64,000 nt of DNA from Bacteroidales bacterium (GCA_036794825.1 DAIRGA010000022.1:4008-68007), one strand, 5' to 3'. Positions 33,262 through 62,777 are shown, counted from the first letter of the stretch. Numbers and translations are program-made. Notes: generated from the sequence alone by a model not told the origin.

Positions 33262-33262
33262 A

Positions 33263-39815: not shown

Positions 39816-39880
39816 TTTGATTGATATGTAAGTTAAGTAGCAAAGGCGATTCGAAATTTCGATTTGAGTTGTTTAACGCA

Positions 39881-41020: not shown

Positions 41021-41057
41021 GCAAAGAAACAAAAAAAATATTTTTTTGTTTCTTTGC
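41021..41057. promoter_or_regulatory. Perfect 17-bp inverted repeat (3-nt spacer), candidate TetR operator or promoter element
   Basis: gcaaagaaacaaaaaaa-ata-tttttttgtttctttgc ends 28 nt upstream of the TetR start at 41085. It sits in the divergent region toward the SDR/efflux operon. Confidence 0.45.
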
Positions 41058-41084
41058 AGCAGAAAAAAGAAATAAAAACTTTGT

Positions 41085-41732: not shown

Positions 41733-41889
41733 AAATTTTCATTTTCAGACGCAGCTATCGGGGATGGGAAGGTAAATGCGTCAGAAAGTATCCGAAATCA
41801 GGGATTAAACAAATAGTATGCAGTTCAATTTTAAAAATTTTCGATGAAAATGTACGGTTTGAATTTTTACTCAATTAAATCAAATAGCT

Positions 41890-45835: not shown

Positions 45836-46212
45836 GAGAAACCACGATTGTTCTTTTGGTGAATGTGATTAAACGCCTGGTCTTTATAATATGTTGAAAA
45901 TCTCCAGTGCTATCTGAGTGAACGCTAATCCATTGATAAGTAAACAATTCCTAAGAACTGGATTCATCAAGATGAAGGCCTCTTTTGATAACAGCTACAA
46001 ATTCACCGCATAAAATATTTTCTGGTAGCCCGGATAATCTTTTGATTTATCAAAACTAACTGAATTGTAGTTGCACTTACGGCTACCACAAAGCCACTTT
46101 CAGACAGAAAAACAACCCTTTCAGCAACTCTTATTTTTAATCCGGTATAACCCGACCCTACTTTTGTTCCGTGAATTTTCACGAATTATAAATCATTTAA
46201 AAAGTTAAAGTC

Positions 46213-46800
46213 ATGAGAACAAAAGTAATGTTAAGCATCGCACTCAGTCTTCTGGTAACGGTAATAACCTTTGGCCAGGAAAAAGAAAATCGTTTTGGAA
46301 TCGAAATCAACGGTGAGGTTTCGTTTGTGTCATCTGACCTTTCAGGCGCCAGTCTGAACACCGGTATGGGCTTTGAAACCATTTTACAGTACCGATTCAT
46401 GCCTTACACCAGCGTTTATGGCGGATGGGGCTGGATCAACTTTAACGCCGATGAATCGTTCGCCGGCCCGGATATGGATTTTGAACAAACCGGTTACATC
46501 CTTGGATTGCAGTTTATGCGTCAGATTGGAAGCTCGCCGGTTTCCTATTTCGCAAGAGCAGGCCTTTTATATTCTCACATCGAAACCGAAAATAATGACG
46601 GTGATATTATCAGCGACACGGGACATGGTGTTGGTTATCAGGTAGCCGGCGGTATCGAAGTGGCTATGGGTAAAAACTGGAGTCTGGCGCCAGGATTAAA
46701 ATTTAATTCTCTATCAGGAGAAACCGAAATAGAAGGCGTGAATTACCAGCTTGATCACCGCTATGTTTCAGCAAGGATAGGTGTTGTCAAAAGATTCTAA
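46213..46800 (+). CDS. Outer-membrane beta-barrel protein (OmpA-barrel/porin-family)
   Basis: Signal peptide MRTKVMLSIALSLLVTVITFGQ, an 8-strand-like pattern, C-terminal ...ARIGVVKRF. Confidence 0.6.
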   Translation: MRTKVMLSIALSLLVTVITFGQEKENRFGIEINGEVSFVSSDLSGASLNTGMGFETILQYRFMPYTSVYGGWGWINFNADESFAGPDMDFEQTGYILGLQFMRQIGSSPVSYFARAGLLYSHIETENNDGDIISDTGHGVGYQVAGGIEVAMGKNWSLAPGLKFNSLSGETEIEGVNYQLDHRYVSARIGVVKRF

Positions 46801-46816
46801 AAAAATGAACCCAGGT

Positions 46817-46851
46817 CGGGAAGTGGATTTTTCCTCTTCCCGGCTTTTTTT
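46817..46851 (+). terminator. Intrinsic terminator
   Basis: A 7-bp GC-rich stem, cgggaag (46817-46823) with cttcccg (46836-46842), followed by a T7 run, 17 nt after the stop at 46800. Confidence 0.7.
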
Positions 46852-46870
46852 ATCGCATCCGTAAATAATC

Positions 46871-48040
46871 ATGAGGCAACCTAAGTCCAAAGAAATGAAA
46901 CCAATTGAAAGTTTTACTCTTAAAAATGGAACTAAAATGATTTCGCTTGCACTAATAATAATGCTTGGAATATTTTTCCTTTTGTTTGCCATTCTCTTGA
47001 TTATCAGCCCGGGCAAGGTTGAAACTTTTAGAGATGAAAAGGGGAACACCCTGCCAGGAAGCATCTCGGAAAAAATCTTTATCAATATTGGGGGAGTGAA
47101 GCAGGGAATGATTATCAGAGGCAAAAGTAAGGATAACCCGGTTTTGCTCTTTCTTCATGGTGGTCCGGGCTTTCCGAATTATTTCCTGTTCGAAAAATTC
47201 AATCCGGGGCTTGAGGATTACTTTACGGTTTGCTACTGGGAACAACGCGGTGGCGGACTTTCTTACACACCTGAAGTAACCATCGAAAGCATGACCCTCG
47301 AACAGCTTGTTTCCGATGCCATTGAAGTAACCAAATACCTGCGGGAGCGATTTGAAAAGGATAAGATTTACATGATGGCATGGTCAGGCGGAACAACCAT
47401 TGCTTTGCCTGCAGTTTCAAAGGCGCCGGAGCTTTTCCGCGCATACGTCGCAATGGGACAGATCACCAGGCAGCGCGAATCGGAAAGAATTGCCTTCGAA
47501 TTTATGTTGAAAAAGTTCACCGAACTGAACAACCAACAATCAATAAAGGAGTTGAAGAAGTTTAGAAATTTGGAATCGGAATCAGATTTGATCTCTTTTT
47601 ACAACTCCGGCGCCCGCGACAAATTGATGCACAAGCTGGGCATTGGAACCATGCGAAGCATGAAGTCGGTTTTCTGGGATATTTTTCTGCCAGTATGGAC
47701 ATGTCGGGCTTACACGCTCAGGGAGAAATATAATATCTGGAAATCGAAGATGGTGTTTCTGCCCAAAACAAACCTGAAAAACGAAACCCTGACCACCGAT
47801 TTTTCCGGAGCTTTTCCCGAAATCGCAATTCCCATATACTTTGTAAGCGGAAGGTACGACTTAACGGTGAATGTTGATTTGTCAACGGATTATTACTACC
47901 GTATTAATGCTCCGATGAAAGGGTTTTACACCTTTGAAAATTCGGCTCACGGCCCCCTTTTTGAAGAACCCGATAGAATGAAGGAAATTTTAATCACTGA
48001 TGTACTGCATGGAAGAAACGATCTTGCTGACAATGATTAG
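46871..48040 (+). CDS. Alpha/beta hydrolase (proline-iminopeptidase-like)
   Basis: N-terminal TM anchor, oxyanion motif LLFLHGGPG and nucleophile elbow MMAWSGGT. Confidence 0.7.
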   Translation: MRQPKSKEMKPIESFTLKNGTKMISLALIIMLGIFFLLFAILLIISPGKVETFRDEKGNTLPGSISEKIFINIGGVKQGMIIRGKSKDNPVLLFLHGGPGFPNYFLFEKFNPGLEDYFTVCYWEQRGGGLSYTPEVTIESMTLEQLVSDAIEVTKYLRERFEKDKIYMMAWSGGTTIALPAVSKAPELFRAYVAMGQITRQRESERIAFEFMLKKFTELNNQQSIKELKKFRNLESESDLISFYNSGARDKLMHKLGIGTMRSMKSVFWDIFLPVWTCRAYTLREKYNIWKSKMVFLPKTNLKNETLTTDFSGAFPEIAIPIYFVSGRYDLTVNVDLSTDYYYRINAPMKGFYTFENSAHGPLFEEPDRMKEILITDVLHGRNDLADND

Positions 48041-48298
48041 TGCCAGTCCATAAACCTGGCCTGCTGAAAATCAGCGTTTGCCCCATCCCTAAAGGGAGCA
48101 CAGATTTTCAACAGCTTACTCCCGGAATTTATCCCGGCAAAGTTGGGAGGGACGGGGTAAATAAGCGGTTGAAAATCAATCAGGGGAAATTGTGGTCAGG
48201 CACTAGAGAACATGTTTTAGCAGAAAACATATTCAAGTAACAGCGTGCGCGTGGCAATATTCCTGTAAATTTGAATATTATTTTTTAGATAAATCAAG

Positions 48299-50425
48299 AT
48301 GGACGACAAAATTCTGATAGAGCGTATCCCGCTGTTGAGGATCATTAAAGTGCTGATATTATTAGCATTAGGCATGCAGTTGATTGTCATCTCACAAATG
48401 TACTTCTTCAGGGCAGATTTGTTTGCCGATCCTTACTATCTGTTTATCCGGTTGTTTCGGGGTACTGTTTTAACATTTGTTGCCGGTATGTTCCTGGTGT
48501 ATCCTGGAGTATTTGTAATCAAAAAATTGAACCGGAAATGGCCCTGGAAAAGAAATCCTATGAAACGCTTCTTCATTCAGTTTCCTTTTGCTGTTCTGGG
48601 TGGGTTACTTATCACACCGGTTATTATCCTGCCGGCCACCCTGTTTTTTGGTTTGGAGAGCGATTTTCAAACTCTGCTCAACAATGCCTATTATCTGGTG
48701 ATCTTAAATCTCTTCCTGATGTTGGTCCTTGAAGCAAGAATTTACTTTGATGAAAATGACAAATCGAAACGCGCAGCCGAAAGTTTTCAACAGAAACTGA
48801 TTATGGAAGCGGCAAATCGTGCAAAGGTTGAGGCACAAATTCATATTGAAGAGGAGAAAAACAAATATGCCCAAAAGCTGATCGAACAGGAAAAAGAGCT
48901 AAACAAGCAACTGGAGGAAGAGATCAGAGCACGAACGGTCGTTACCCGGCAACTCAACGAGAGTCGCGACCAGCTCAACAGCATACTTTCCAACCTGGCC
49001 GGAGCGGCTTACCGTTGCCATTTCGACGAGCATTATACCATGAAATATATCAGCGAAAAAATCTTCGACATTTCGGGCTTTCATGCGGCCGAACTAATCG
49101 AAAACTCATCCGTCCCTTTTGCAACCATCATTCATCCCGACGATCTGGAGTTCTGCAGGAAAAACATTGAGGATGCTGCTGTACAAAAATCCCACTACGA
49201 ATTTGAGTACAGGATCTTGCACAAAAGCGGAGAAACTGTCTGGATAAACGAAAATGGAAAGGCCATTTACAATGCGTTGGACGAGGTTGAATACTTGGAT
49301 GGAATCATTACTGACATCACCAGAAGGAAACATGCGGAGCTTGCCGCTGCCGAGAGCGAACGAAATTACAAGGAGATGATGGATTTCCTGCCGCAACCCA
49401 TATTCGAGCTGGATATCAACGGTAATATCCTCTTCAACAACAAAGCCGGACAGAAATTTTTCAATCTGCCTGATCCCGATGAGTCAGAAGAAAAAATATC
49501 GGCCCTGAATTTCTTTATTGAAGAGGATATCCCCAGGGTTATTCAGAACATTAAAAAATCAATTGAAAATCACGAAACCAGTCCTAATGAGTACACTGTA
49601 AAAAAGCCTGATGGAAGCCTTTGTCCCGTATTGATTTACGGATCTCCGATTGTTCGAGATAATCAGGTTGTGGGGCGCCGGGGAATTATCATTGATATTT
49701 CGGAACGTAAAAAGCAGGAGCTAAAACTGTTACAAGCCAAGGAAGAACTTGAACGGATCAACAATACCCTGGAGCAAAGCGTTACCGAGCGCACAAAGCA
49801 GCTTACCGAAGCCAATACGCAATTGCTTAAAATGCAAAAGGAAAACCTTCAGTCGCAGTTTGAAGTGCTGAAACAGCAGGTCAACCCACACTTCCTGTTT
49901 AACAGTTTGAATGTGCTGACCTCTCTCATCAAAATTGACCCCGACCTGGCCGAGTCGTTCACCGAAAGACTCTCAAAGGTTTATCGCTATGTGCTCGAAA
50001 ACAAAGAGAAAGATGTGGTGAGTCTGAGCACTGAGCTGGAGTTTTTAAATTCTTACATTTTCCTCCTGGAAATCAGGTTTATGAAAAAGCTTTTCATCCA
50101 AATCAATATTGACAAGTTATACTACGACTACCAGATTCTACCCATTGCCATTCAACTGATCATCGAAAATGCGATCAAACACAACACTTTTTCCAAGGTT
50201 CAACCTTTGAAAATTGAGATTTTTGTTGATGACAAGCAGCGGTTAAATATCATCAACAACCTCAATTTGAGAGAGACCAAGCTGGTTTCGACCGGTGTTG
50301 GTTTGGAAAACATCAATCGCCGGTATGCGCTTGTCTCCGATCATAAACCCGAATTCATCAAAACCAACGACCAATTTATAGCAAAGCTACCTTTGCTGAT
50401 GCCTGACAAAATTGAAACTAAATAA
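48299..50425 (+). CDS. Sensor histidine kinase, LytS/YehU-type (His_kinase domain) with TM region, coiled coil and two PAS domains
   Basis: 708 aa. NPHFLFNSLNVL (the PF06580-type H-box) and an HATPase region (IENAIKHN...GVGLENI). PAS-like segments lie between residues 220 and 480. Confidence 0.85.
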   Translation: MDDKILIERIPLLRIIKVLILLALGMQLIVISQMYFFRADLFADPYYLFIRLFRGTVLTFVAGMFLVYPGVFVIKKLNRKWPWKRNPMKRFFIQFPFAVLGGLLITPVIILPATLFFGLESDFQTLLNNAYYLVILNLFLMLVLEARIYFDENDKSKRAAESFQQKLIMEAANRAKVEAQIHIEEEKNKYAQKLIEQEKELNKQLEEEIRARTVVTRQLNESRDQLNSILSNLAGAAYRCHFDEHYTMKYISEKIFDISGFHAAELIENSSVPFATIIHPDDLEFCRKNIEDAAVQKSHYEFEYRILHKSGETVWINENGKAIYNALDEVEYLDGIITDITRRKHAELAAAESERNYKEMMDFLPQPIFELDINGNILFNNKAGQKFFNLPDPDESEEKISALNFFIEEDIPRVIQNIKKSIENHETSPNEYTVKKPDGSLCPVLIYGSPIVRDNQVVGRRGIIIDISERKKQELKLLQAKEELERINNTLEQSVTERTKQLTEANTQLLKMQKENLQSQFEVLKQQVNPHFLFNSLNVLTSLIKIDPDLAESFTERLSKVYRYVLENKEKDVVSLSTELEFLNSYIFLLEIRFMKKLFIQINIDKLYYDYQILPIAIQLIIENAIKHNTFSKVQPLKIEIFVDDKQRLNIINNLNLRETKLVSTGVGLENINRRYALVSDHKPEFIKTNDQFIAKLPLLMPDKIETK

Positions 50426-50435
50426 AGCAACTAAA

Positions 50436-51200
50436 ATGAAAGTCGTAATTATTGAAGATGAGGCATTTGCCACTTTGCGTTTGAAAAAGATGATCCTGGA
50501 TTATGATCCTGAAATAAAGATCATGGCAGAGCTTGAATCGGTGGCTGAATCAGTCAGATGGTTCAAAGCGAACCCCGAACCCGATCTGATTTTCCTTGAC
50601 ATCCATCTTGAGGATGATCTCAGCTTCGCCATTTTCGACCAGGTAAACATCTCCAGTCCGGTAATTTTTACCACAGCATTTGATGAATATGCCATCAAGG
50701 CATTTAAGCTCAAAAGCATTGACTACCTGCTGAAACCGATCGTTCACGAGGAACTTGCTGCTGCACTGAAAAAGTACGAGCAATTCAGCGGACTTCACCA
50801 CAGTTCGGTTGATTTGCAGTCGCTTTACAACCTGCTAACCGGAAAGGAAAAGAAGTACAAAGAACGGCTTTCCATTTCTATTGGTTCGAAGATTAAGATG
50901 GTGGAAGTGACTGATATTGCTTATGTTTATGTCATGGAAAAGGGTGTTTATCTGCGCACTTTCCAGGGGAATACCTACAGTATTGATTTTCCTCTCGATA
51001 AGCTGGAAGAGATGCTTGATCCCGGAAAATTTTTCAGAATTAACCGGAAATACCTGGTTAACATTTCATCAATCAATGATATGGTGGCTTACTCGCGCAG
51101 TCGTGTTAAACTGGAGCTCAAACCCAGAGCCGATGATGAGTTTGAAACGATTGTCAGCATTGACCGTTCGGCGGAGTTTAAAAAGTGGCTGAATCAGTAG
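50436..51200 (+). CDS. LytTR-family response regulator
   Basis: MKVVIIEDE...DLIFLDIHL (receiver domain) and a C-terminal LytTR DNA-binding domain (FFRINRKYLVN). The track ORF begins at a TTG (50412); the ATG at 50436 is the more likely start. Confidence 0.85.
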   Translation: MKVVIIEDEAFATLRLKKMILDYDPEIKIMAELESVAESVRWFKANPEPDLIFLDIHLEDDLSFAIFDQVNISSPVIFTTAFDEYAIKAFKLKSIDYLLKPIVHEELAAALKKYEQFSGLHHSSVDLQSLYNLLTGKEKKYKERLSISIGSKIKMVEVTDIAYVYVMEKGVYLRTFQGNTYSIDFPLDKLEEMLDPGKFFRINRKYLVNISSINDMVAYSRSRVKLELKPRADDEFETIVSIDRSAEFKKWLNQ

Positions 51201-51225
51201 AATTTTCAAATTAAAACAGCTGATC

Positions 51226-51558
51226 CTATGAGAATTGGCGGGCATTTTCCAGCAATTCGAATCCTGTCCTTTTTATTTCAACAACAAAAGGAATATCAGA
51301 TTGAAAATCCTCAAGAGAAATTGGATGTGGTTCAATCCGGCTATCAATTTGAGAAGCAAGCAGCATTAATTGAACCTGGGTATCAAAACGGTCAGAATCA
51401 GCTAGGTTTTTAAAAACTAATGCCAGATCAATATCGCTATCCTGATTATAGTTCCCCCTGGCATATGATCCAAAAAGATACACAGACTCAACATCAAGAT
51501 ACTTTCCCTTTATCAGTTTTACGAATTCTGTGATTGCTCTATCAACTGTTTTATCCAT
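51226..51558 (-). CDS. Nucleotidyltransferase-domain protein (MNT partner of a HEPN/MNT toxin-antitoxin pair)
   Basis: 110 aa with the pol-beta-type NTase motif LFGSYARGNYNQDSDIDLALV. Overlaps the upstream HEPN ORF by 40 nt. Confidence 0.8.
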   Translation of the reverse strand: MDKTVDRAITEFVKLIKGKYLDVESVYLFGSYARGNYNQDSDIDLALVFKNLADSDRFDTQVQLMLLASQIDSRIEPHPISLEDFQSDIPFVVEIKRTGFELLENARQFS

Positions 51559-51863
51559 TTTCTTAAATCTATTAGTTTCTCAATCCACTCAGTTGTAAAT
51601 TGCGAAGTACATCGCTGTTTAAAACTCAATTTATAATCATCATATCGGGCATTGATATTAAAAGCCGTAATAGTCACGAGTTGTTCTTTTATTATTTCAT
51701 CGCATTCCAAATCAGCTTTCTCAGCAAGCCTCAATAAATTATGAATGTAAGGTGGATAATCTGATTTTGCCTGTAAAAAATAGGCCTTCAGCAACTTCTC
51801 AAGCATTAAATGTCCGATGAATAGTGCCCAACTGTATCTTTTTGAATTGAACATATCCATCAT
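51519..51863 (-). CDS. HEPN-domain protein, 5'-truncated (missing about 25 N-terminal codons, which lie 9.1 kb upstream)
   Basis: MMDMFNSKRYSWALFIGHLMLEKLLKAYF...AFNINARYDDYK matches the Bacteroidota HEPN (PF05168-like) pattern, but begins inside helix 1. Homology continues 2 codons upstream (GAT ACT, to 51869) and then stops. Confidence 0.7.
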   Translation of the reverse strand: MMDMFNSKRYSWALFIGHLMLEKLLKAYFLQAKSDYPPYIHNLLRLAEKADLECDEIIKEQLVTITAFNINARYDDYKLSFKQRCTSQFTTEWIEKLIDLRKWIKQLIEQSQNS

Positions 51864-52248
51864 AGTATCGTTTTTGCGCTTGGCATTCGTGCGGGATTTC
51901 GGAGGACAAAACTGTCAACACAGCACTAAAGCCAAATTGAAAAACTGAACTTGAATTTAAGCACGTCACCCCGCATGACGCCAAACGCATGTTACCAGCT
52001 GGCGTTATTGTCCACCGTGTCTGTAAACCATTTTCGTTGTTGAGTTTCACTGTCATGTCGTGTTGGTCTTTGCGGTTGCGTCTATTAATTTTTTTTTAAA
52101 AGGGTTGGAAAAATTTTTTTGAATTTCTTTTCTGGGTGGCAAAGGTGGAAGCTCAGTTCGGTAAGCTCACTGCACCGCTTTTGCAATCCTTTGGTTTTAG
52201 CGCTGGCTTGTACGAATTATAAATGTGCTACACCCATGCGATGGCTTT

Positions 52249-55200
52249 TTATTTCGTCATTTCGTATGCTATCATTTCAGCTTGTTTTAAAACAGTCTCA
52301 GTCGCTAACATTTGCATATCGGGCGGATAACCATATTTTCTTAAAAGCCTTTTTACGGCAACTTTCAATTTTGCTTTTACACTCTCTTTGATTGTCCAAT
52401 CTATGGATGCATTTTGTCTAATAGTTTCTGTCAGCACAATGGCAAGTTCTCTTAGTTTGTCTTGTTGCATGAGTTCTCTTGCACTGTCGTTGTTGGCTAC
52501 TGCTGTGTAAAAAGCATATTCAAAGTCTGTCAAACCCATGTGCCTGGCTTCACTGTCCATGTCAACAATTTCTTTGCTCAGGTTGATGAGTTCTTCAATT
52601 ACTTCGGCTGCTGTCAGAATCTTGTTGTGGTATTTTTTAATGGCATTTTCCAGCATTTCCATCAAAGACTTGCTTTTTACAAGATTCTTTTTGGCTCTCG
52701 ATTTTATTTCATCATTCAGGAGTTTTTTCAAAACTTCCAAGGCAATATTTTTATGTTCCATTCCTTTCAGCTCCAATAAGAATTCTTCTGAAAGAATTGA
52801 AATATCAGGTTTCTTTATTCCAGCTGCATCGAAAACGTCAATCACTTGTTCAGAAACCAATGCTTTGTCAATGACTTGCCGAATTGTGGTTTCAATTTCT
52901 TCGTCTGTTCTGCCTGAACCTGTTCCGTCAAATTTTGCCAATCGTGCTTTCACTGCCTGGAAAAACGAAACTTCATCTTTTGCATCCATTGCCTGGTCAT
53001 GAGGAATGGCAATGGCAAAGGCTTTTGAAAGTGCTGTTACTTCGTTGATGTAACGTTTCTTTCCATCTTCTAAACCTAAAATGTGTTCTTCTGCTGCAAG
53101 TATCAGCGACAATTTTTTTGAAGTGTCGGCTTCAAAATAGGTTTCATATTCAAAGCCATGATACATTTGAGAAACAACTTCCAACTTCTCTAACATCAAT
53201 TGAACGGCTTGCTCTTGTAAAATAGTTGGGTCGCCTTTGCCTCCGGAATCCGAATAAAATGCCAAGGCCTTTTTCAAGTCGGCTGCAATTCCTAAATAAT
53301 CTACAATCAAACCACCTGGCTTGTCTTTGTAAACCCTGTTTACACGGGCAATAGCCTGCATCAGATTATGTCCTTTCATTGGTTTATCAATGTATAGGGT
53401 GTGGAGGCATGGTGCGTCAAAACCTGTGAGCCACATATCCCGGACTATAACCAATTGCAGTTCGTCATCAGGATTTTTCATTCTTTCGGCAAGCGTTCTT
53501 CTTTGTTCTTTAGTGGTATGATGTTTTGAAATTTTCGGACCATCAGAAGAAGCGGAAGTCATGACCACTTTTATCACTCCTTTATTCAAATCGTCTGAAT
53601 GCCATTCAGGTTTCAGGTCAATAATTGCCTGATACAAATCCGCTGCAATTCTGCGGCTCATGGAAACAATCATTCCTTTTCCTTCAAACACCTCCTGTCT
53701 TTTGCTAAAATGTGCAATAATGTCTTTGGCAATATTCTTTATCCGATTCTCACTACCAACCAGGGCTTCCAATTGTGTCCATTTGGCTTTTGCCTTTTGT
53801 GTGTTGGTTAAATCTTCCTGTTCCAATTCACCATCCAGTTCCTCAACTAACCTTTTGCCCTCTTCGCTTAGGTTGACCTTTGCCAAGCGACTTTCGTAAT
53901 AAATGCGGACTGTTGCACCATCTTCAACGGCTTGGGCTATATCGTAAATGTCCACATAGTTTCCGAAAACCGCTGGCGTGTTTACATCTGTATTTTCAAT
54001 GGGTGTTCCTGTAAAGCCCAGATAGGTTGCATTTGGCAAAGCATCCCGCATATACTTGGCAAAACCGTAAACGATTTTTTTTCCAATTAAATTGCCGGCA
54101 TAATCTTTAGAATCAATGGTTTTGGCCTTAAAACCATATTGTGTTCTGTGTGCTTCGTCTGCAATAACAACTATGTTATTCCGATTAGAAAGCATTTCAT
54201 AAACATTGCCTTCTTCAGGTTGAAATTTTTGAATGGTGGTAAATACAACACCGCCCGAAGCTACTTTCAATAAGTCTTTTAATTGGTTTCTATCGTCTGC
54301 TTGAACTGGTTCTTGTCTTAGCAATTGTTTTGATGCTGCAAACGTATCAAACAGTTGGTCGTCCAAATCATTACGGTCTGTAATTACAAGTATGGTCGGA
54401 TTGTCTAAAACCAAAACGATTTTTCCTGTGTAGAAAACCATTGACAATGATTTTCCGCTTCCTTGTGTATGCCAGACTACTCCACCTTTTCTGTCGCCTA
54501 TAGGTTGATTTTTTACTCCGGGCACTCCATAGCTTTCAGGAGACTCCTGCACTAAATTCCCCTCCTCTGGAGCTGTACCCGATAGAGTGTGATGCTCCAT
54601 TCCCCTCCCCTGGAGGGGTGCCCGAAGGGCGGGGTGGTCAAAAAGCCTTTGCATTGTACTATATAGTTGATTCATCACATGTTCAACAGGAATATGAATT
54701 ACTGTCAAACCCAATGACTCCAGGTAGGCATCCCTCTGAGCATCATACTCTTCTTTGTCATCATGGCTGCTTCCATCTATTTCAATAACCACTTGACAAT
54801 TGCTGCAATAGAAATCTACAATGTAGTTTCCTATGATTTTTTGCCGGTCAAAATCAAATCCTTTGAATTGCTTATTCTTTACTTGATTCCAAAAAAGCAC
54901 TTCGGAGAGATTGCCTGCTTGGCGAAGTTTTCTTGCTCGTTCTTTGAGTTTGGGATTGTAAGGAAGTTCGAAGTAGTTTCTGCTGGCTCTTTTTACCACC
55001 CCGTCAGACTTCGTCTGCCACCCCTCCAATGGAGGGGAATTGAACCCCGATGCTCTCAAAGTGGATTCAACGGCTCGGTTTACAGCATAATATTGATGAT
55101 AAGCCGCCAATTTTTTTACTGTAGAAATGGTGGTAATACCCGTTACCGTATCTTCCTTTTTCGATTTTTCAAAAACAATAAAATGCCTGATTAAGTCAAT

Positions 55201-55965
55201 CAGGGTTTCTTTGTTCAACATGCCTTGAATTAACGTTTCTAACTGACTTACCAAATGCGATGCTTCAGCTTTACCGTCTGCCGATTTCCAAGCCATAAAG
55301 CGGCTAAATCCCGCAGAGATTGAACCTGCTTTGGCTTCCAGTCCATCAGAAATAACCACAAATCCGTTGTAAGTGAACAGACCTGGAATGATGGCTTTAT
55401 AGGTTTCTACTTGTTTGAAAGCAGAATTGATTGTGGTGTTCTCGTCCGCAGCATTTTTTAACTCAATAACCACCAACGGAATTCCATTGACAAATAAAAT
55501 TACATCAGGACGTTTGTTATTGCCGTTTTCAATGATGGTAAATTGGTTGGTTACGACAAATTCGTTGTTGTGTGGATTCTTAAAATCTATCAGCCAAACA
55601 CGGTCGCCCCTGTCGTCTCCATCAACACGTTTTGAAACAGGGATACCTTCGGTTAATAAACGATGAAAGATTTCATTGTTGGCAAGCAATTCAGGCGAAG
55701 CAATGCGTTGAATTTCTTTGATGGCTTCTGCCTGTGCATCGGATGGAATACTGCGATTAATTCTTTTGACGGCAGTTTGCAACCTGTTTACCAGCAAAAC
55801 CTGGGCGTAGCTCTCTCGGGTATCCTGACCACCCTGGCCTTCAGTCGCCAATCCCTGGGAGGTGAATTCGGGGGCAATATCGGGGGCATAGATGTACTCA
55901 TAGCCAAGTTGAGCGAGCAACTCAATGGCAAAGGTTTCTATTGTATGTTCAGTTATGGGTTTCAA
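52249..55965 (-). CDS. hsdR: Type I restriction enzyme R subunit (HsdR) with an in-frame DUF559 endonuclease-domain insertion
   Basis: 1238 aa. N-terminal PD-(D/E)xK region (PDVILFVNGIPLVVIELKN). Helicase motifs GGVVWHTQGSGKSLSM, VVIADEAHRTQYG, LGFTGTP and MQAIARVNR. C-terminal DUF3387-like tail. About 177 extra residues sit between TLRASG and GDRKGGVVWHTQ. Confidence 0.9.
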   Translation of the reverse strand: MKPITEHTIETFAIELLAQLGYEYIYAPDIAPEFTSQGLATEGQGGQDTRESYAQVLLVNRLQTAVKRINRSIPSDAQAEAIKEIQRIASPELLANNEIFHRLLTEGIPVSKRVDGDDRGDRVWLIDFKNPHNNEFVVTNQFTIIENGNNKRPDVILFVNGIPLVVIELKNAADENTTINSAFKQVETYKAIIPGLFTYNGFVVISDGLEAKAGSISAGFSRFMAWKSADGKAEASHLVSQLETLIQGMLNKETLIDLIRHFIVFEKSKKEDTVTGITTISTVKKLAAYHQYYAVNRAVESTLRASGFNSPPLEGWQTKSDGVVKRASRNYFELPYNPKLKERARKLRQAGNLSEVLFWNQVKNKQFKGFDFDRQKIIGNYIVDFYCSNCQVVIEIDGSSHDDKEEYDAQRDAYLESLGLTVIHIPVEHVMNQLYSTMQRLFDHPALRAPLQGRGMEHHTLSGTAPEEGNLVQESPESYGVPGVKNQPIGDRKGGVVWHTQGSGKSLSMVFYTGKIVLVLDNPTILVITDRNDLDDQLFDTFAASKQLLRQEPVQADDRNQLKDLLKVASGGVVFTTIQKFQPEEGNVYEMLSNRNNIVVIADEAHRTQYGFKAKTIDSKDYAGNLIGKKIVYGFAKYMRDALPNATYLGFTGTPIENTDVNTPAVFGNYVDIYDIAQAVEDGATVRIYYESRLAKVNLSEEGKRLVEELDGELEQEDLTNTQKAKAKWTQLEALVGSENRIKNIAKDIIAHFSKRQEVFEGKGMIVSMSRRIAADLYQAIIDLKPEWHSDDLNKGVIKVVMTSASSDGPKISKHHTTKEQRRTLAERMKNPDDELQLVIVRDMWLTGFDAPCLHTLYIDKPMKGHNLMQAIARVNRVYKDKPGGLIVDYLGIAADLKKALAFYSDSGGKGDPTILQEQAVQLMLEKLEVVSQMYHGFEYETYFEADTSKKLSLILAAEEHILGLEDGKKRYINEVTALSKAFAIAIPHDQAMDAKDEVSFFQAVKARLAKFDGTGSGRTDEEIETTIRQVIDKALVSEQVIDVFDAAGIKKPDISILSEEFLLELKGMEHKNIALEVLKKLLNDEIKSRAKKNLVKSKSLMEMLENAIKKYHNKILTAAEVIEELINLSKEIVDMDSEARHMGLTDFEYAFYTAVANNDSARELMQQDKLRELAIVLTETIRQNASIDWTIKESVKAKLKVAVKRLLRKYGYPPDMQMLATETVLKQAEMIAYEMTK
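54520..55050 (-). mobile_element. DUF559 (Vsr-like PD-(D/E)xK endonuclease) cassette with ~50-bp double-hairpin terminal inverted repeats, inserted in frame in hsdR
   Basis: Encoded segment: LPYNPKLKERARKLRQAGNLSEVLFWNQVKNKQFKGFDFDRQKIIGNYIVDFYCSNCQVVIEIDGSSHDD...RDAYLESLGLTVIHIP, the DUF559 pattern. TIRs are at 54599-54645 (attcccctcccctggaggggtgcccgaagggcggggtggtcaaaaag) and 54989-55040 (reverse complement attcccctccattggaggggtggcagacgaagtctgacggggtggtaaaaag). An extra half copy lies at 54555-54572. Confidence 0.75.
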
Positions 55966-56579
55966 TTACTGTTTACTATATCTGTGATTCCTTGCCAGAA
56001 AATTTGAAAACTTGTTGATCTGTTTCTTAATGGTTCCATGTAAACAGATATGTTTCTGGCTAGTTCGGTTTTTCTTATTCCATGCTTGTAATAACCTTTA
56101 GACTTCAATAGTCTTTCAAATGCTTCACATGTTCCTCCTTCAATTTGATCGGGAACACGAAATTGTGCTTTTTTATGAAAGTTAGCAGAAACTCTTGGGT
56201 ATGCTGCACTGACTGCTTCGGGGTCGCCAAAATACCACGATTCGAGTTCTTCTATGGCAATCCTGTTCATAACTGTAAAAGTCATCTCGCCTTCTGCTTC
56301 TGATTTTGTTATTAAGCCTGCTCCATTTGCACAACTTTCAAGATATTTCTTCAGTTCGTGGCAGTCCTGATTATCCCGGTCAACGAGCACAACTATTTTA
56401 AAATCTTGCGTTATCCAATTTTTATAGGCACGAAGCTCCATTTTCAGCTTCTTTAATAAATCCTGTTTACCCTGAAAGGTAATAATCTTATAAGTATGCT
56501 CGCCGGTGATGAGTTTTGGCAGCAAATTGTGCAATGCCATTTCTGCAGAAAGTTCTTCAACCAAAAATTCCAGATGCAT
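55962..56579 (-). CDS. DUF4276-family protein (Toprim-like fold suspected), partner of the upstream ATPase
   Basis: 205 aa. MHLEFLVEELSAE (N-terminal acidic E motif), KIVVLVDRDNQD (DxD-type motif) and RIAIEELESWYFGD match my recollection of the DUF4276 pattern. The start is 1 nt after the ATPase stop; the stop overlaps the hsdR ATG by 4 nt. Confidence 0.65.
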   Translation of the reverse strand: MHLEFLVEELSAEMALHNLLPKLITGEHTYKIITFQGKQDLLKKLKMELRAYKNWITQDFKIVVLVDRDNQDCHELKKYLESCANGAGLITKSEAEGEMTFTVMNRIAIEELESWYFGDPEAVSAAYPRVSANFHKKAQFRVPDQIEGGTCEAFERLLKSKGYYKHGIRKTELARNISVYMEPLRNRSTSFQIFWQGITDIVNSN

Positions 56580-56580
56580 T

Positions 56581-57804
56581 TTATCTCTTTTTGGGATTAA
56601 ATTTTAAACTACCCTGATTAACAAGCGGATCGCCTACCTCGAAGTGCCCTTCTACCCACAAATTTCCCAATACAGCTCCCTCACTCACAAAATCATTGAT
56701 CCCACTCATAGCTGCCGCACATTTTGCGTTTGTATAACCCTTCTCATCCCTGTATAAAACCCAAAGTTCATCAGGCTTCAATCCATTTACAAAAAAAGGA
56801 GAGTGCGTTGTAACCATGAGTTGTGAAGTCTCTGCTGATGCTCTGCATTCTTCTGATAATTCAGGCAATAAACGTGGGTGAAGTTGATTTTCCGGTTCTT
56901 CAATTCCTATTAATTGGGGTGGCTCAGGATCATACAAAACAGTGAGGTAAGCCAACAATTTTAAGGTTCCATCTGAAGCAAATTTTGACAAGACCGGACG
57001 CTCAAATGGAGCATCCTTTAATTGCAACAGCAGTCTTCCATCCTGCATAAGCTCTGTTTCAACTCTTTCGAGACGGGGTACTCTTTCGGCAAGAATCCTC
57101 AGGATTTTCCCCAAACGTTCAGGATGTTGTTCTTTAAGGAATTGGATCACATTCGGAAGGTTATCGCCCGTTGCGGAAAGACGTTCCTGCGGGCCGGCTT
57201 CAGTGATTCCACGTGTTTGATCGGCGGTGAGGTACGACAAGTACCAGCCTGTAATAAATCTACGAAGCGCAATCACCCTCGGATGCTTTGATAGTTGCCC
57301 AAGCGTGTTTACTGCCAACATCTCGGAACTGTCAAGCGATTCCTCTATTCTTTGGTCTGAAATATCGGGAGATTCCCCCGTGATTACTCTTCCGACACCT
57401 TTTGCAAAGTCCAGAAATGCGAAAGGTCTCCCTGCCGGGCTTCTTTTCCACAATAATCTTTCGCTTGCTACAAATGGCCCTTTGTTGTTTTCATCAATCT
57501 TAAGCTCATAGGTAATAAGCGGTGATTTTGGGGTTTCCCTGTATTTTATCTCAAACTCAATGGGGCCGGTGCATCCGCGTGTGCGCAATTCTTTAAAACG
57601 GCCCCGCTTATCCCATGCTTTACGCAAGCCTACGGAGAAGCACTCGCTTAGGAATGCGAAAACATCAAACACCGTTGATTTTCCACTGCCGTTCGGTCCT
57701 AAAAAAACCGTAAGCGGCTTGATATTTTTAAGTTCAAGGTTTTGAAGCGCCCTGTAATTCTGGACGCGCAAATACTCAATTCTGGGAACAGCTTTTTCTC
57801 TCAT
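56581..57804 (-). CDS. ABC/SMC-type AAA ATPase (AAA_21/AAA_15-like) of OLD/AriA/RloA-like defence ATPases
   Basis: 407 aa. Walker [12 protein letters not shown], signature-like [11 protein letters not shown], Walker [16 protein letters not shown]-loop VTTHSP. No fused nuclease domain. Confidence 0.8.
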
Positions 57805-57832
57805 GTCAAAATCATTTGTTTACAAAAGTACA

Positions 57833-58972
57833 TTAACTATTCATTTCCACCCTCACCTCCCCACTCATCAACTTCGGCAACAAGTTATCACGCAATGATG
57901 TGAGGGTGCGGATTTGGGTTTGGTTGGATTTGATTTTTTTCAAAGTTGCCTCACACCAATCAATGGTATTATTTAATATTTTTTCTGATGGCACGCTGAT
58001 TTTCAAATCTTTTATTTGGTCAAAAGTTATCTGAGGAAAAGTACCACTTCTTGACTCAGCTATCATTTGCAACCAATCTACTGTAGATGAATTTGTTAAA
58101 TAGAAATATACGAACGCTTGGCTAACTACTTTTTTTGACCTTAATACCATTAGTTTTGTTGACACTACATAATTATCAGCATCAAACTCAATATAAGCCC
58201 ATCTTCCATTTGCTGGTCTAATTTCACTAAATAAAATGTCGTCTTTTTGAATGGATTTCTTTGCTTGACCAGGTAATCCCTTTACATCCGAAGGATTGTG
58301 CTCAAGAACATTTCCTAAGTAAATATCAGAAGTATTTAAAAATACTATTGTTGGATAGGGAAACTTGTGGGTAATAGAAACGGTTTCTATCAAGTCTCCT
58401 AAATTAAGTTGATATTCCCACTCCTCCTTCGCTTCCTCCACAAACCACTGCCTAAACAGGGTTTCGGCCATTTTTTCCAAGGTGGCGTTTTGGCGGTGCA
58501 GCAGGTCTATTTTGTCGTCTAAACTGCTGAGGACGGAGGCAATAGCGGTTTGTTCTTTTTCATTAGAAGGAAGAAAAAAGGGAATAGATGTCAGTGCTGC
58601 TTTATTTAACTTTGGCTGAACAGCACCCGTTAAAAATGGATTCAAATCAAGATTTTGCATATAATAAACTATCAATTTATTATGAAAATCTTTCTTCCCT
58701 TTAACAATATGAGCATGATTGTTTACCCAAAATTGACCACTTGCAACGAAGGCAATTGGTGTATTTCTGGATTTTAAATTCTCTCCATCTTCCGAGATTA
58801 ATACATGATCTCCATCAAAAATATAATCGTTTACATAATCAATAATGCCTGAGGCACCATAATATGGAAAGTCACCCTTTTTCTTTGCTCTCTCCATTGA
58901 GCTGAGAGGAATTCTTCTGTGATTAAGAATTTCCGCAAAATCTTCGATTGAATATTCCTTCCACTCACTCAT
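57833..58972 (-). CDS. hsdS: Type I restriction enzyme specificity subunit (HsdS)
   Basis: 379 aa. Two target-recognition halves separated by conserved helices ([40 protein letters not shown] and C-terminal [22 protein letters not shown]). Confidence 0.9.
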
Positions 58973-59107
58973 TAACTTTAATCTTTAAAAGGTTAGCGGA
59001 AATGACTTCATTGAGTTGGGCTTCTTCTTTCAATTGTGCTTCCAACTCTGCTTTTAAACTGGCAAAGCGTTCCGCAAAATTGAAGTCGTCTTCTTCATCG
59101 AGTAAAA
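58965..59107 (-). pseudogene. hsdM: Out-of-frame C-terminal tail of hsdM (44 codons) created by a +1 frameshift in a T4 (A4 on + strand) run
   Basis: In the -1-shifted frame the sequence reads (G)[46 protein letters not shown], the normal acidic/coiled-coil HsdM tail. Its stop (58967-58965) overlaps the hsdS ATG (58972-58970) in the usual coupled arrangement. Deleting one A from aaaa at 59104-59107 restores a 525-aa HsdM. Confidence 0.75.
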
Positions 59108-60543
59108 CCTACATATCTACCCGGTGTAAGCACATAGTCCAATTCTTTTACTTTGCTAAGAGGGGCAGAAGCACAAAAGCCCGCAACGTCTTCATACTTG
59201 CCATCAAGGTTTCTCCAATTGTGGTAAGTGCTGGTAATTTTATCAATGTCTTCCTGAGAAAGTTCACGGGTTCTGCGGTTTATCAAATGCCCTAAGTTTC
59301 GGGCATCAATAAATAATATTTCGTTGCTGCGGTCTCTATGACCACCCCGCCCTGCGGGCACCCCTCCAGTGGAGGGGAATTGGGAGCCCTTGCGGTTACG
59401 GCTCATAAACCATAAGGCAGCAGGAATTTGTGTATTTAAAAACAACTTGGCAGGCAGGTTTACAATGCAATCAATCAAGCCATTTTCAACCAAAGCTTTT
59501 CTTATGTCGCCTTCGCCTGAGGTTTTAGAAGTCAATGCACCTTTTGCCAATACCACACCTGCTTGTCCGCTAGGTGCTAAATGGTAAATGAAATGTTGCA
59601 TCCAGGCAAAGTTGGCGTTGCCTGTTGGTGGAGTTCCGTATTGCCAACGACCATCGGTTCGCATTAAGTCACCGCCCCAATCACTCACATTGAACGGTGG
59701 ATTGGCAATGATGTAATCGGCTTTCAGGTCTTTGTGTGCATCGTTTAAAAAAGAACCTTCGTTGTTCCATTTCACTTGTGAGCTGTCAATACCACGAATA
59801 GCCAGGTTCATTTTAGCCAATCGCCAGGTGGTTTGGTTGCTCTCTTGTCCGTAAATGGAAATGTCGTTTACTTTTCCCTGGTGTTCGGTTACAAATTTTT
59901 CGGAGTGAACAAACATACCACCCGAACCGCAACAAGGGTCAAATACCCGTCCTTTATATGGCTCCAGCATTTCAACCAATAATTCCACAACGCTTCTTGG
60001 CGTATAGAACTGTCCGCCTTTCTTGCCTTCTGCAAGGGCAAACTCACCCAGGAAATATTCAAAAACGTGTCCGAGCACATCGGCACTTCTTGCTTTGGCA
60101 TCGCCTAAGGCAATGTTTCCAACCAGGTCAATGAGTTCACCCAAACTGGTCGGGTCCAGATTTTGTCGGGCAAATACTTTGGGTAGAACACCTTTTAGGG
60201 AATTGTTTTCTACTTCAATAGCATCCATTGCGGCATCAACTGTGATGCCTATTGTAGGTTGTTTTGCATGTGATTGCAGAAACTTCCAGCGGGCAGATGG
60301 CGGAACAAAGAATACATTTTCAGCTTTGTATTCGTCTTTGTCTTCGGGGTCAGCTCCGTTTTCTTCGTCTGCTTTTAGTCTTGCATACAATTCTTCAAAA
60401 GCATCAGAGATGTATTTCAGGAAGATTAACCCCAAAACAATATGCTTGTATTCGGCAGCATCTATGTTCTTGCGGAGTTTGTCCGCAGCTTTCCAGAGTT
60501 GTTTTTCTAAAGGTTCTTCTGTTGTTGCTTTTTGTTTAGCCAT
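59095..60543 (-). CDS. hsdM: Type I restriction enzyme methyltransferase subunit (HsdM), C-terminally truncated by frameshift and carrying a 47-nt in-frame repeat insertion
   Basis: 482 aa. N-terminal HsdM_N (LWKAADKLR...[13 protein letters not shown]), AdoMet motif [11 protein letters not shown], catalytic IIANPPFN. Ends abruptly at PGRYVGFTR*. Confidence 0.9.
59334..59380 (-). repeat. Solo copy of the double-hairpin element that flanks the DUF559 cassette, translated in frame within hsdM (…[14 protein letters not shown]…)
   Basis: The reverse complement, attcccctccactggaggggtgcccgcagggcggggtggtcatagag, matches the 54599-54645 repeat at 43 of 47 positions. Hairpins are CCCCTCC-ac-TGGAGGGG and GCCC-gca-GGGC. 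Confidence 0.8.
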
Positions 60544-60964
60544 TATGTTCTATTAAATTTTAATTCGTTTTTAGTCTGCTAATTTATGTTTTTAATGCCC
60601 ATTAATGTCATTTGGTGCGGTGGCAAGAAATGGCTTCCCGAAAAATCGGGACAGGCTTTTTGGTTTTGCGAAGGGTCGGCTTGTGTGTCGGGCAAAACCA
60701 AATGTGCCATTTGCGGGCTGGCATAGAATTTACTCACAGAACTTTTGTTTTCAATGGTGTTCGTGAATACTTCGTATTTCAAAATATTTTGTGCGGTGGG
60801 GAAAAAAATAAAACACAGAAGGGTAGGCAATGAGTGTCGGTTTACTCGTGGTCCGTTTGATGTATCGTTTTTATGTCTGTGTTCACCTGTCAAAATGGTT
60901 TACTTTTTCTCGTTTAAGTTCTTGTCTGTTTGCTGTGTTGTGTCGTCCTACGCTTGCTGGTAAC

Positions 60965-61033
60965 ATAGTCATCGTTGGAGCTGTCAACCCAGTATTTGAT
61001 TAATTTTTCCTTCTGAAATATTTTACTATCCAT
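60965..61033 (-). pseudogene. Orphan 5' fragment (23 codons) of the HEPN gene, separated from its body by the 9.1-kb island
   Basis: The ATG at 61033 gives MDSKIFQKEKLIKYWVDSSNDDY, the usual HEPN helix-1 start (..YW...S..DY.T..(M/L)F..KRY). It then reads into unrelated sequence and stops at 60914. Joined to 51869-51519 it gives ...WVDSSNDDY-DTMMDMFNSKRYSWALFIGH..., about 139 aa. Confidence 0.6.
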
Positions 61034-61136
61034 TTGCACAAAAATAAGAAAAGTAATAAACATGGATTAATCATTCTGGTGCAAGTTGATTAGAAGCCAG
61101 GATGTTATCCTGCAAAAAAATCTTATAGCCAACTTT

Positions 61137-62777
61137 TTATAATTTCGATGCCCTGTAACGACTAATTAAACTATTTGTTGAGGTATCGTGATTTAGCGCA
61201 GGTTCCACTTCACTTTCAAGCTCAGGCATAATGCGCTGGGCAAGCACTTTTCCGAGTTCCACGCCCCATTGGTCAAATGACCCGACATTCCATACAGCGC
61301 CCTGGGTGAATACAATATGTTCGTAGAGTGCGACAAGTTTTCCCAATACTTCCGGAGTCAGTCGCTGAGCAAGAATGGTGTTGGATGGCCGGTTGCCTTC
61401 AAAAACCTTATGCGGCGCCAGCCAATCGGGTACGCCCTCAGCTTTGACCTGTTCAATCGTTTTGCCAAAAGCAAGCGCTTCGGCCTGGGCAAACATGTTG
61501 GCCATCAGAATGTCATGGTGATTACCCAATGGATGTTGCGGCTCAATAAAAGCTATAAAATCACAGGGAATCAGTCGCGTACCCTGGTGAATGAGCTGGT
61601 AAAAAGAGTGTTGTCCGTTGGTGCCGGGCTCGCCCCAGTAAATCGGGCTGGTTTGGTAGTCAACCTCTTTACCATCCAGCGTTACCCGCTTTCCGTTGCT
61701 TTCCATCGTTAGCTGCTGCAGGTAAGCCGGAAAACGTTTCAGGTATTGCTCATAAGGTAAAACGGCAATGGTTTCGGCGCCCAGAAAATTGACATTCCAG
61801 ATCGAAAGCAAAGCCATAAGCACCGGCAGATTTTGTTTAAATGGCGCACTGCGGAAATGTTCATCCATCAGGTGGAAACCCCTGAGCATAGCCCTAAAAT
61901 TATCCGGTCCGATAGCGATCATGGTCGAAAGCCCGATGGCTGAATCCATCGAGTAGCGGCCGCCAACCCAATCCCAGAATCCGAACATATTTCCGGTGTC
62001 AATTCCGAATTTGGCTACTGCAGAAGCATTGGTGGAAACGGCAACAAAATGGCTGGCAATGGCAGTTTCATTTCCGCCCGTTTTACTGAGAAACCATTGC
62101 CGTGCAGTGTGTGCATTGGTCATGGTTTCGAGGGTGGTGAATGTTTTTGAGGATATGATGAAAAGGGTTTCGGATGCGTCGAGATCAATCACCGCTTCGG
62201 CAAAATCGGTTCCATCAACATTTGACAAATACCGGAAAGTCATCGAGCGGTCGCTGTAATGCTTCAGCGCTTCGTAAGCCATTACTGGTCCAAGGTCAGA
62301 ACCTCCGATACCAATGTTGACTATATTTTTTATCCGCCGACCGGTATAACCCTTCCACGCTCCTGAACGCACCTTGTCTGCAAACAGAGTCATTTTTTCT
62401 AAAACATTATGTACTCCGGGTACTACATTTTGGCCATCAACCATAACGACAGCATCTTTGGGCGCACGCAAAGCCACGTGCAAAACAGCACGGTTCTCGG
62501 TAAGGTTGATCCTTTCTCCGCTGAACATGGCATCAATTTTTTCGCGAAGCCCTGTATCTTCAGCCAGTTTTAACAATAAAGCAAGGGTTTCATCAGTAAT
62601 CCGGTTTTTGGAATAATCAAGAAAAAGGCCTTCTGCTTCAAGAGACATTTTTCCAGCGCGGTGATCATTTCCCTGAAAAAGTTCGCGGAGATGGGGGATT
62701 CCATTGTTCAGATGATTCTTAAGTGCCTTCCACGCAGGCTGGTTGGTAAGTTCCTGTATTTTTTGTGTCATATTCAT
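61137..62777 (-). CDS. pgi: Glucose-6-phosphate isomerase
   Basis: Motifs [35 protein letters not shown] and [18 protein letters not shown]. The track ORF extends to 62822; the Met at 62777 ([11 protein letters not shown]) or 62771 is the more plausible start. Confidence 0.95.

Follow-up and report, generated by a model that had tools for sequence, protein, structure and literature searches.

This work concerns a 64,000-nt stretch of Bacteroidales bacterium DNA (GCA_036794825.1, DAIRGA010000022.1:4008-68007; hereafter the window, meaning the whole stretch that was analyzed), in which a 9.1-kb island encoding a type I restriction-modification (R-M) system interrupts a HEPN gene located next to its minimal nucleotidyltransferase (MNT) partner. 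All features of the locus described below are on the minus strand. The first 23 codons of HEPN lie at 60965 to 61033 and codon 24 onward at 51519 to 51868, with a possible restart at the ATG ATG at 51863. The inserted unit between them spans 9,095 bp (51869 to 60963) when counted in the integron register, from the T of G/TT to the final G (here and throughout, a slash between bases or residues marks a junction or crossover point). The MNT gene (51226 to 51558; Pfam Polbeta and NTP_transf_2) lies downstream of hsdR in the same orientation and overlaps HEPN by 40 nt. As the initial annotation of the locus had stated, this gene was kept: it is intact and retains its GSX10DXD motif (GSYARGNYNQDSDID).

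Comparison with homologs confirmed that a single HEPN gene is split into two halves, 61033-60965 and 51869-51519. The segment from 61033 to 60965 (ATG GAT AGT ... GAC TAT) translates as MDSKIFQKEKLIKYWVDSSNDDY and then runs into unrelated sequence, with a stop 16 codons farther on, and the HEPN open reading frame (ORF) from 51863 to 51519 is preceded by the in-frame codons GAT ACT (D T). More than 1,100 HEPN homologs were found in a large protein collection, the best of them sharing 68 to 81% identity and nearly all having 135 aa. These proteins start with MDNKKIDKEKLIKYWIDSSDDDYDTMIDMF and cross the join (..DDY/DTM..) with zero residues gained or lost. Thus, the 23-codon piece, which had been read as the start and first helix of a HEPN protein, does match the N termini of the 135-aa homologs and is collinear with positions 3392 to 3460 of the related contig L081, while the protein encoded at 51519-51863 is truncated, as proposed, since its homologs do not begin at MMDMF. 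Furthermore, the Pfam HEPN (PF05168) score rises from 51.2 bits for the truncated ORF (profile positions 17 to 116) to 60.3 bits for the joined protein (positions 2 to 115). The joined product had also been described as being of normal length, which holds for its gap-free alignment to the homologs but less well for its size: it has 139 aa rather than the 135 aa of most homologs because the canonical stop was lost, changed from TAG to TCA by two neighboring substitutions (51534-51519) that add 4 aa and also turn Ala10 of MNT into Thr.

In an AlphaFold model of the joined HEPN (predicted local distance difference test score, 83.9), helix alpha-1 comprises residues 8 to 31. Since the break falls after residue 23, the insertion takes away most of this helix; judging from the model, the split HEPN loses about three-quarters of it and is most likely inactive. 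The closest solved folds (1ufb, 4nqf, 1wol, 3o10 [the sacsin HEPN domain], 1o3u, and 2hsb) are classical HEPN structures; these relatives came only from the fold search, as a PDB sequence search with HEPN returned no matches.

The state of the locus without the insert is preserved in a related lineage. A 110-aa protein (P0007) that is 98% identical to the C-terminal part of HEPN is encoded on two Joint Genome Institute metagenome contigs, L081 and L082, which share about 95% identity with the window over an AI-2E transporter gene and pgi and 98% over HEPN-MNT. Both contigs carry an uninterrupted pgi-HEPN-MNT locus, i.e., the empty site, of the kind that the initial annotation had proposed to look for in related genomes, and both lack the inserted unit. 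The empty site reads ...GATGACTAT/GATACTATGATGG (in longer form, ...AACGATGACTAT GATACTATGATGG), with GATGACTATGATACTATG as the junction sequence. In the window, the 5' junction between 60965 and 60964 reads ...GATGACTAT/GTTACCAGC..., i.e., GATGACTAT/GTTACC..., and the 3' junction between 51870 and 51869 reads ...GCGCAAAAAC/GATACTATG, i.e., ...CAAAAAC/GATACTATG. The insert is therefore exactly 9,095 bp, with one G assignable to either junction side; because this single G is common to both junctions, the registers 51869-60963 and 51870-60964 are equivalent. A target-site duplication was sought at the insert junctions and none was found, the AACGAT likeness there being an internal repeat of the target.

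Codon 8 is an in-frame TAG in the sister-lineage HEPN genes (L081, 3392 to 3799; L082, 3386 to 3793) and AAG in the window. Given this stop, the HEPN N terminus was lost independently in both lineages. Ratios of nonsynonymous to synonymous substitution between the window and L081 were 0.33 for MNT and 0.16 for pgi, and the C-terminal part of HEPN differed by two nonsynonymous and no synonymous changes, although substitutions in HEPN-MNT are too few for these values to be informative.

The insert had been described as a single co-oriented operon of 9,095 bp, hsdM-hsdS-ATPase-DUF4276-hsdR, and both the Pfam names and the boundaries given by the empty site agree with that description. The hsdM gene (59095 to 60543) encodes a type I methyltransferase (Pfam N6_Mtase, 355 bits; HsdM_N, 93 bits), hsdS (57833 to 58972) a specificity subunit with two target-recognition domains (Pfam Methylase_S in two stretches), and hsdR (52249 to 55965) a protein of 1,238 aa with the Pfam domains HSDR_N, DUF559, SWI2_SNF2, and T1RH-like_C. 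Full-length, co-oriented HsdM, HsdS, and HsdR (nuclease plus superfamily 2 helicase) were recognized by Pfam, NCBIfam, and PADLOC, which predicts a complete type I R-M system. Between hsdS and hsdR lie the genes for an ABC/AAA_21 ATPase (56581 to 57804; Pfam AAA_21; PADLOC HEC-01A, 559 bits) and for its Toprim-like DUF4276 partner (55962 to 56579; Pfam DUF4276; PADLOC HEC-01B, 284 bits). DUF4276 is a Toprim-superfamily domain (PMC12065111), and pairings of an ABC ATPase with a Toprim protein are relatives of the PARIS and OLD systems (PMC11464382). The strong HEC-01A and HEC-01B matches and the nesting of the adjacent pair in another defense system resemble HEC-01 as described by Payne et al. 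(bioRxiv 10.1101/2024.01.29.577857), with the difference that the host system is a classical type I R-M system in the window and Hma in the published case. HEC-01 gave no protection against phages in one published test (bioRxiv 10.1101/2024.01.29.577857); the systems encoded in the island are presumably active.

A noncoding leader (60544 to 60949) precedes hsdM and is presumed to contain the operon promoter; a 104-aa ORF had no PADLOC match there, and the leader is not conserved in the closest R-M operons. Two flank ORFs tested against PADLOC matched no defense family, and no copies of the flank sequences turned up in other parts of the window. Rfam, which does not include an attC family, gave no meaningful match over 51000-61300, its one match in the leader being far below threshold. 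Scans for sigma-70 promoters and terminators returned counts equal to chance expectation, although this type of scan is ill suited to Bacteroidota. As had been noted, the insert contains no integrase, transposase, or tRNA gene according to Pfam and tRNA scans.

Three features indicate that the island is foreign DNA. Its GC content is 41.1%, compared with 45.6% for the rest of the window, and falls below that of every 9.1-kb background window. Its tetranucleotide distance is atypical as well (0.242, versus 0.129 ± 0.021 for the background, with a maximum of 0.206). Additionally, a GC-rich palindromic repeat (CCCCTCCNNNGGAGGGG) occurs in four copies in the island (54555-54645, 55004-55043, 55826-55871, and 59334-59381) and nowhere else in the 64 kb. 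The copy at 59334-59381 is a solo repeat of about 45 nt located in frame within hsdM. A side observation concerns hsdR, which carries at 54541-55060 an in-frame DUF559 (Vsr-like endonuclease) module in the linker between its nuclease and helicase domains; the palindromic repeats that flank this module translate to NSPPLEGW.. and ..GTPPEEGN. Module-bearing HsdR proteins (about 1,215 to 1,460 aa) were found in Bacteroidota, Nostoc, and Gammaproteobacteria. Among the matches listed, HsdR proteins without the module were about 90 to 94% identical over 62 to 66% of the query (94% over 62% for the 1,074-aa versions). From these alignments, the DUF559 module looks like a mobile in-frame insertion.

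The initial annotation gave no mechanism for the insertion and overlooked an attC-like recombination site of about 136 nt at the 3' end of the island (51869 to 52005), which we recognized with two covariance models, R1 and R2. Integron attC sites consist of R'' (...AAC), a short spacer, L'', a variable loop, L', a second spacer, and R' (G/TT...). The same layout is present in the window site: the R'' core TGGTAAC is at 51997-51991, L'' (GCGTTTGGC) at 51988-51980, L' (GCCAAGCGC) at 51884-51876, the spacer AAAAAC at 51875-51870, and the crossover G at 51869. The R' remainder is the start of the inserted unit, TTACCAGCAAGCGT (60950 to 60963), an inverted complement of the R'' side 9 kb away. Short inverted repeats between the noncoding flanks exceed chance, as only 2 of 3,000 dinucleotide shuffles do as well. 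The strongest of them, ATGTTACCAGCAAGCGT (60966-60950), agrees at 15 of 17 positions with the reverse complement of 51989-52005, a partner located 119 nt away from the opposite insert end. Read as an integron cassette, the start G/TTACCAGCAAGCGT is complementary to the inner core ACGCCAGCTGGTAAC at 13 of 15 positions. When the island ends were joined in silico, they folded into a single continuous hairpin in which the R and L boxes are paired and the reconstituted R' is GTTACCA; this folded site has an asymmetric spacer (AT versus AAAAAC) plus bulges.

This element belongs to a structured family that is supported by covariation and forms cassette arrays. In a distant-similarity search, the last ~117 nt of the insert matched plasmids of Myroides odoratimimus (75% identity) and a Flavobacterium (73% identity), and further copies were present in loci fetched for HEPN homologs (L006, L038, and L001). 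The aligned elements have little sequence in common beyond a 5' AAC, a 3' CG-TT, and a CCGAAA motif, with AAC and CG/TT invariant in alignments of 11 and of 14 elements. In the 11-element alignment, 13 of the 19 consensus pairs of the basal stem show compensatory (double) changes. Paired cells amounted to 85.6%, versus 31 to 46% when partner columns were slid, and the covariation score was 0.52, versus 0.04 to 0.15 for the slid controls; none of 500 shuffles reached the observed value. Model R1 scores the window site at 99.8 bits. For model R2, sequences from the window, Myroides, and Flavobacterium were left out of the building set; its sole match in the 64-kb window is 52005-51850 (66.1 bits; E = 1e-14).

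Across 90 loci, R1 detected 40 sites at E < 0.01. In an uncultured Bacteroidales metagenome-assembled genome (L001; CAWAHF010000004.1, 16-18189), 12 co-oriented sites within 20 kb delimit cassettes mostly 0.4 to 1.1 kb long, two tandem HEPN-MNT cassettes among them. Sites directly 3' of MNT were present at nine loci (L006, L013, L014, L017, L018 [a Geofilum isolate], L020, L025, L028, and L050). The beginnings of the cassettes can be compared with the R'' of the following site: G/TTGTGCTTAA versus ..TAAGCACAAC in the HEPN-MNT cassettes of L006 and L001 and, in other L001 cassettes, G/TTAGCG versus CGCTAAC, GTTATGGCC versus GGCCATAAC, and GTTATGCTGC versus GCAGCATAAC. Cognate start/R'' pairs that parse cleanly (several L001 and L006 cassettes) agree at 6 to 7 of 8 positions beyond GTT, compared with a mean of 2.5 of 8 for noncognate pairs. 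With a crossover located between G and TT, a cassette begins with the TT... half of its own R', and this half is therefore complementary to the R'' at its 3' end; the start of the window insert behaves in the same way.

A candidate recombinase was found beside one of these arrays. In the Cyclobacteriaceae chromosome L028, an internally deleted pseudogene of a Xer/IntI-like tyrosine recombinase (9305-9817, minus strand) is divergent from, and about 100 nt away from, G/TTGTGCTT (G/TTGTGCTTAATGGC), the start of a HEPN-MNT cassette. Beyond this cassette come a site and a second cassette with two small ORFs (10897-11536), which by eye appear RelE-like and similar to an XRE-type regulator. As far as gene order and sequence indicate, the L028 order is the classical intI-attI-cassettes arrangement.

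We propose, with a probability of roughly 70%, that the insert represents a single integron-type gene cassette of very large size, which an integrase inserted at a secondary site. The cassette would consist of a 421-nt leader, the five co-oriented defense genes, and the single attC-like site at the 3' end. An integron-type tyrosine recombinase, we infer, would have acted in trans on a circular cassette form with the junction ...CAAAAACG/TTACCAGC... (CAAAAACG/TTACCAGCAAGCG). The recombination partner would have been a secondary site, G/AT (G/ATAC), at HEPN codons 23/24, which is neither attI nor attC. Such a crossover would leave one G per junction and no target duplication, and it would make the insert begin, at its 5' end, with the R' remainder (TTACCAGC...) and finish, at its 3' end, with the remaining part of attC. 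The clean, duplication-free insertion and the lack of a recombinase gene would then both be explained, because the attC-like 3' site accounts for the two together. The hybrid right-hand site (G/ATACTA instead of G/TTACCA) probably fixes the cassette in place. The R-M operon itself seems to have been recruited into the cassette, since similarity to related R-M islands (L089 to L094 and L134 to L136) ends precisely where hsdM starts and hsdR stops, and L134 to L136 have no such sites.

The integration of cassettes at secondary chromosomal sites has been documented (PMC4889954). Between integron sites, GTT alone is conserved, and its middle T tolerates mutation (PMC2811028). With secondary-site cassettes such as aadB in RSF1010 (Recchia and Hall 1995, as cited in PMC4889954), the window insert shares a single 3' attC-type site, co-oriented genes, a crossover after G, the lack of duplication, a unit without a recombinase, a start that complements its own R'', and insertion outside the attI/attC platform. 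It differs from integron cassettes in general in its size and gene number (9.1 kb and five genes versus typically ~1 kb, with a quoted maximum of ~2 kb), in its target (GAT, not GTT), in its Bacteroidota host, and in that no cognate IntI was found. Sedentary chromosomal integrons (Darracq et al., bioRxiv 10.1101/2024.07.02.601686) likewise hold phage defense genes as cassettes, with toxin-antitoxin cassettes being frequent. However, the systems reported there are small and streamlined, mainly type II/IV restriction, with CRISPR-Cas and BREX absent, whereas the window has a complete type I R-M system and an embedded two-gene candidate system in one cassette.

Several observations weigh against this interpretation. 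The insert, at 9.1 kb, is more than four times as long as the largest known cassettes, quoted as ~2 kb in a 2016 survey (PMC4889954), and lies far outside the typical 0.4- to 1.1-kb spacing of L001; moreover, it is the single known copy. The closest R-M operons (L134 to L136, 84 to 89% nucleotide identity) sit in no cassette. No tyrosine recombinase or integron integrase was found among window ORFs of at least 150 aa, and a search seeded with the L028 fragment gave only fragments of 86 to 223 aa and no intact integrase. The only candidates for an integron platform (intI, attI, and Pc) are the L028 pseudogene and fragments elsewhere. The degenerate positions of RYYYAAC/GTTRRRY fit the window site (TGGTAAC) poorly, and the site family was recognized through covariance models built in this analysis. 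Finally, the attC model does not explain two extra short inverted repeats shared by the island flanks, CAACACAGCA and GTAAACCATTTT (60940-60931 with 51925-51916 and 60903-60892 with 52034-52023), or a direct AAAAACGATAC repeat (60873-60863 and 51875-51865), one copy of which spans the 3' junction.

An island and a window without a recombinase, together with junction homology of just 0 to 1 nt, are also what would be expected if R-M-bearing foreign DNA had been captured illegitimately at a double-strand break in HEPN, with the attC-like element as a passenger. R-M units that insert without mobility genes are indeed documented (Furuta, Abe, and Kobayashi 2010, PMC2853133). These units resemble the window insert in having an empty site in a relative and no linked integrase or transposase; however, the cases considered show long target duplications, terminal inverted repeats plus 8-bp duplications, or allelic substitution, unlike the window insert, which has no duplication and an attC-like end. 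Random breakage, moreover, would not let one end fall precisely on the element's conserved ...AAAAC-G boundary and the other precisely on the sequence complementary to its R'', and zero nucleotides of the target were lost or gained. We consider illegitimate capture to be unlikely.

The comparison of two lineages gives by itself no direction, so that the island could be ancestral and the L081/L082 lineage could have lost it by precise excision. Nevertheless, 54 of the 82 homolog loci encode a contiguous full-length HEPN, and the remaining ones show point lesions, divergent N termini, or tandem copies. Precise loss is not parsimonious because HEPN has an insertion here in 0 of the 82 loci and the island is compositionally foreign; besides, the same site-specific chemistry would be needed anyway. 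This alternative appears quite improbable.

A rolling-circle transposition of the IS91/ISCR type (insertion sequence IS91 and related insertion sequence common regions) was considered because a pair made up of a tyrosine recombinase and an IS91 transposase is located 242 nt from the Myroides copy of the element, and such transposition is duplication free and needs no inverted ends. Yet, the Myroides IS91 unit lies between two sites, as would an insertion sequence that had landed within a cassette, and none is near the Flavobacterium, L001, L006, or other copies. Furthermore, no Y2 transposase was found in the island or in the window regions scanned, the window ORFs outside those regions being unsearched, and the target has neither GTTC nor CTTG. 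Since the element occurs in arrays without a nearby IS91, and array structure and G/TT phasing are not IS91 properties, we dropped this explanation as very improbable.

An assembly chimera, which the coverage of the source contig (about 8x) and the breaking of Logan contigs within the island could suggest and which the initial annotation had wished to exclude, is not credible because separate Logan assemblies of two runs (SRR6007444 and SRR6007447) span both junctions with 100% identity (5' junction, L139; 3' junction, L084 and L085), and, in addition, the gene halves abut the insert at the same codon boundary and the contig breaks lie in conserved hsd motifs and the conserved attC core. The breaks at 51978 (in the attC-like site) and 55699 (in hsdR) recur in both runs, and a break at 60490 (in hsdM) is seen for SRR6007444. 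They probably reflect k-mers common to other community members rather than structural variants.

Many defense islands have no visible mobility gene, and their route of arrival is usually unknown. Here, the states before and after insertion are both known to the base, and the island ends point to the chemistry of a crossover between attC and a secondary site. If the giant-cassette interpretation is true, the size range of integron cassettes, about 1 to 2 kb with mostly one or two genes, is extended to an operon of five genes and 9 kb, and the presumed small-size limit on them is not absolute. One way in which defense islands without a recombinase arise would then be the insertion of lone large cassettes at secondary sites. 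Work on defense cassettes stresses compaction and reports that long loci are absent (bioRxiv 10.1101/2024.07.02.601686). A 9-kb cassette was not predicted by it because compactness there is attributed to size constraints on recombination. What would be new, beyond one more island without a recombinase, is the mechanism, in which a giant cassette with its own attC enters a secondary site. The analysis also exposes cassette arrays in Bacteroidota, a phylum in which complete-genome surveys had found almost none (a RefSeq survey reports almost no integrons there; PMC9024848). We see about even odds for the broader claim that integron-type recombination can move a multigene defense island as one cassette and that Bacteroidota hold a widespread attC family of ~140 nt, with arrays rich in HEPN-MNT and other toxin-antitoxin cassettes. 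As far as we could find, this ~140-nt attC-like family has no earlier description in the literature.

The interrupted gene deserves attention in its own right. The HEPN protein reads NINARYDDYK and lacks the His of the RX4HXY motif of class I toxins, and MNT reaches 48.9 bits in the NCBIfam MntA model, below its cutoff of 60; the pair is therefore not of the type VII HepT/MntA kind. A PF05168 HEPN without RX4HXY adjoining a PF01909-type MNT corresponds instead to class II HEPN/MNT, a group whose toxicity is unvalidated (PMC7641770). The window pair has the same domains and adjacent, overlapping genes as the class II pairs of Yao et al. (2020, PMC7641770) and Anantharaman et al. (2013, PMC3710099). 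HEPN-T proteins cluster with R-M operons (PMC3710099), but in the window the adjacency to R-M is an insertion accident that breaks HEPN and not an operon partnership. The initial annotation spoke of a HEPN toxin that had been inactivated or truncated: N-terminal truncation by the insertion stands, whereas toxin status is not established for class II HEPN/MNT.

The pattern of lesions across related loci of this subfamily bears on that status. Disrupting lesions affect HEPN in 11 of 81 lineages but the neighboring MNT gene in 0 of 80 (Fisher P = 0.0007). Premature stops account for nine of the lineages (codons 8 [two lineages], 19, 34, 47, 53, 68, 103, and 107; loci L019, L041, L043, L044, L057, L060, L068, and L080, plus the L081/L082 lineage) and frameshifts for two (L066 and L076). 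Disruption restricted to HEPN does fit a counterselected toxin, which would be indirect support drawn from the gene sequences, and this count is, as far as we know, the first indirect evidence of toxin-like counterselection for a class II HEPN. The window would offer a natural case in which an addiction or defense module (R-M) has destroyed the putative toxin of a HEPN/MNT pair and the partner gene has survived.

The HEPN-MNT pair may have a cassette history of its own. A weak, short attC-like hairpin lies over the 3' end of pgi (61118-61191, minus strand; R1, 21.8 bits, E of about 5e-4 to 3e-3), and R2 fails to recover it. The hairpin is followed by G/TTGGCTATAAG (61125 onward) and by a leader like those of the HEPN-MNT cassettes of L006. 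Tentatively, the pair may be a lone cassette inserted after pgi, with G/TTGGCTATAAG as its original entry point; an attC-like site after MNT was sought in the window and in L081, and none was found. Concerning the ends of the island, terminal inverted repeats and subterminal hairpins of the IS200/IS605 or miniature inverted-repeat transposable element type were rejected as candidates, as the ends share only GTT and fold z-scores are unremarkable.

Among the relatives of the R-M operon, one whose HsdR is 90% identical (L135 and L136; Logan runs SRR21749618 and SRR21749614) adjoins a gene with a PhageMin_Tail tape-measure domain and carries different embedded cargo. In another, L091, a different and intact HEPN-MNT pair lies 1.6 kb downstream of hsdR. 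Viral contigs were scanned for exact matches to three 20- to 21-mers derived from the island ends; two had none, and the third gave a chance match in an unrelated GC-rich phage gene.

The window also differs from L081 and L082 by three other blocks that are present only in the window (46111-51198, 42657-44743, and 32439-42067), in which no mobility genes were seen. The block at 46111-51198, which directly borders the MNT stop codon and shows a TTCT microhomology of 4 nt there, encodes a histidine kinase, a LytTR regulator, a hydrolase, and an outer-membrane protein. The block at 32439-42067 encodes a resistance-nodulation-division efflux system, a short-chain dehydrogenase, and a TetR regulator.

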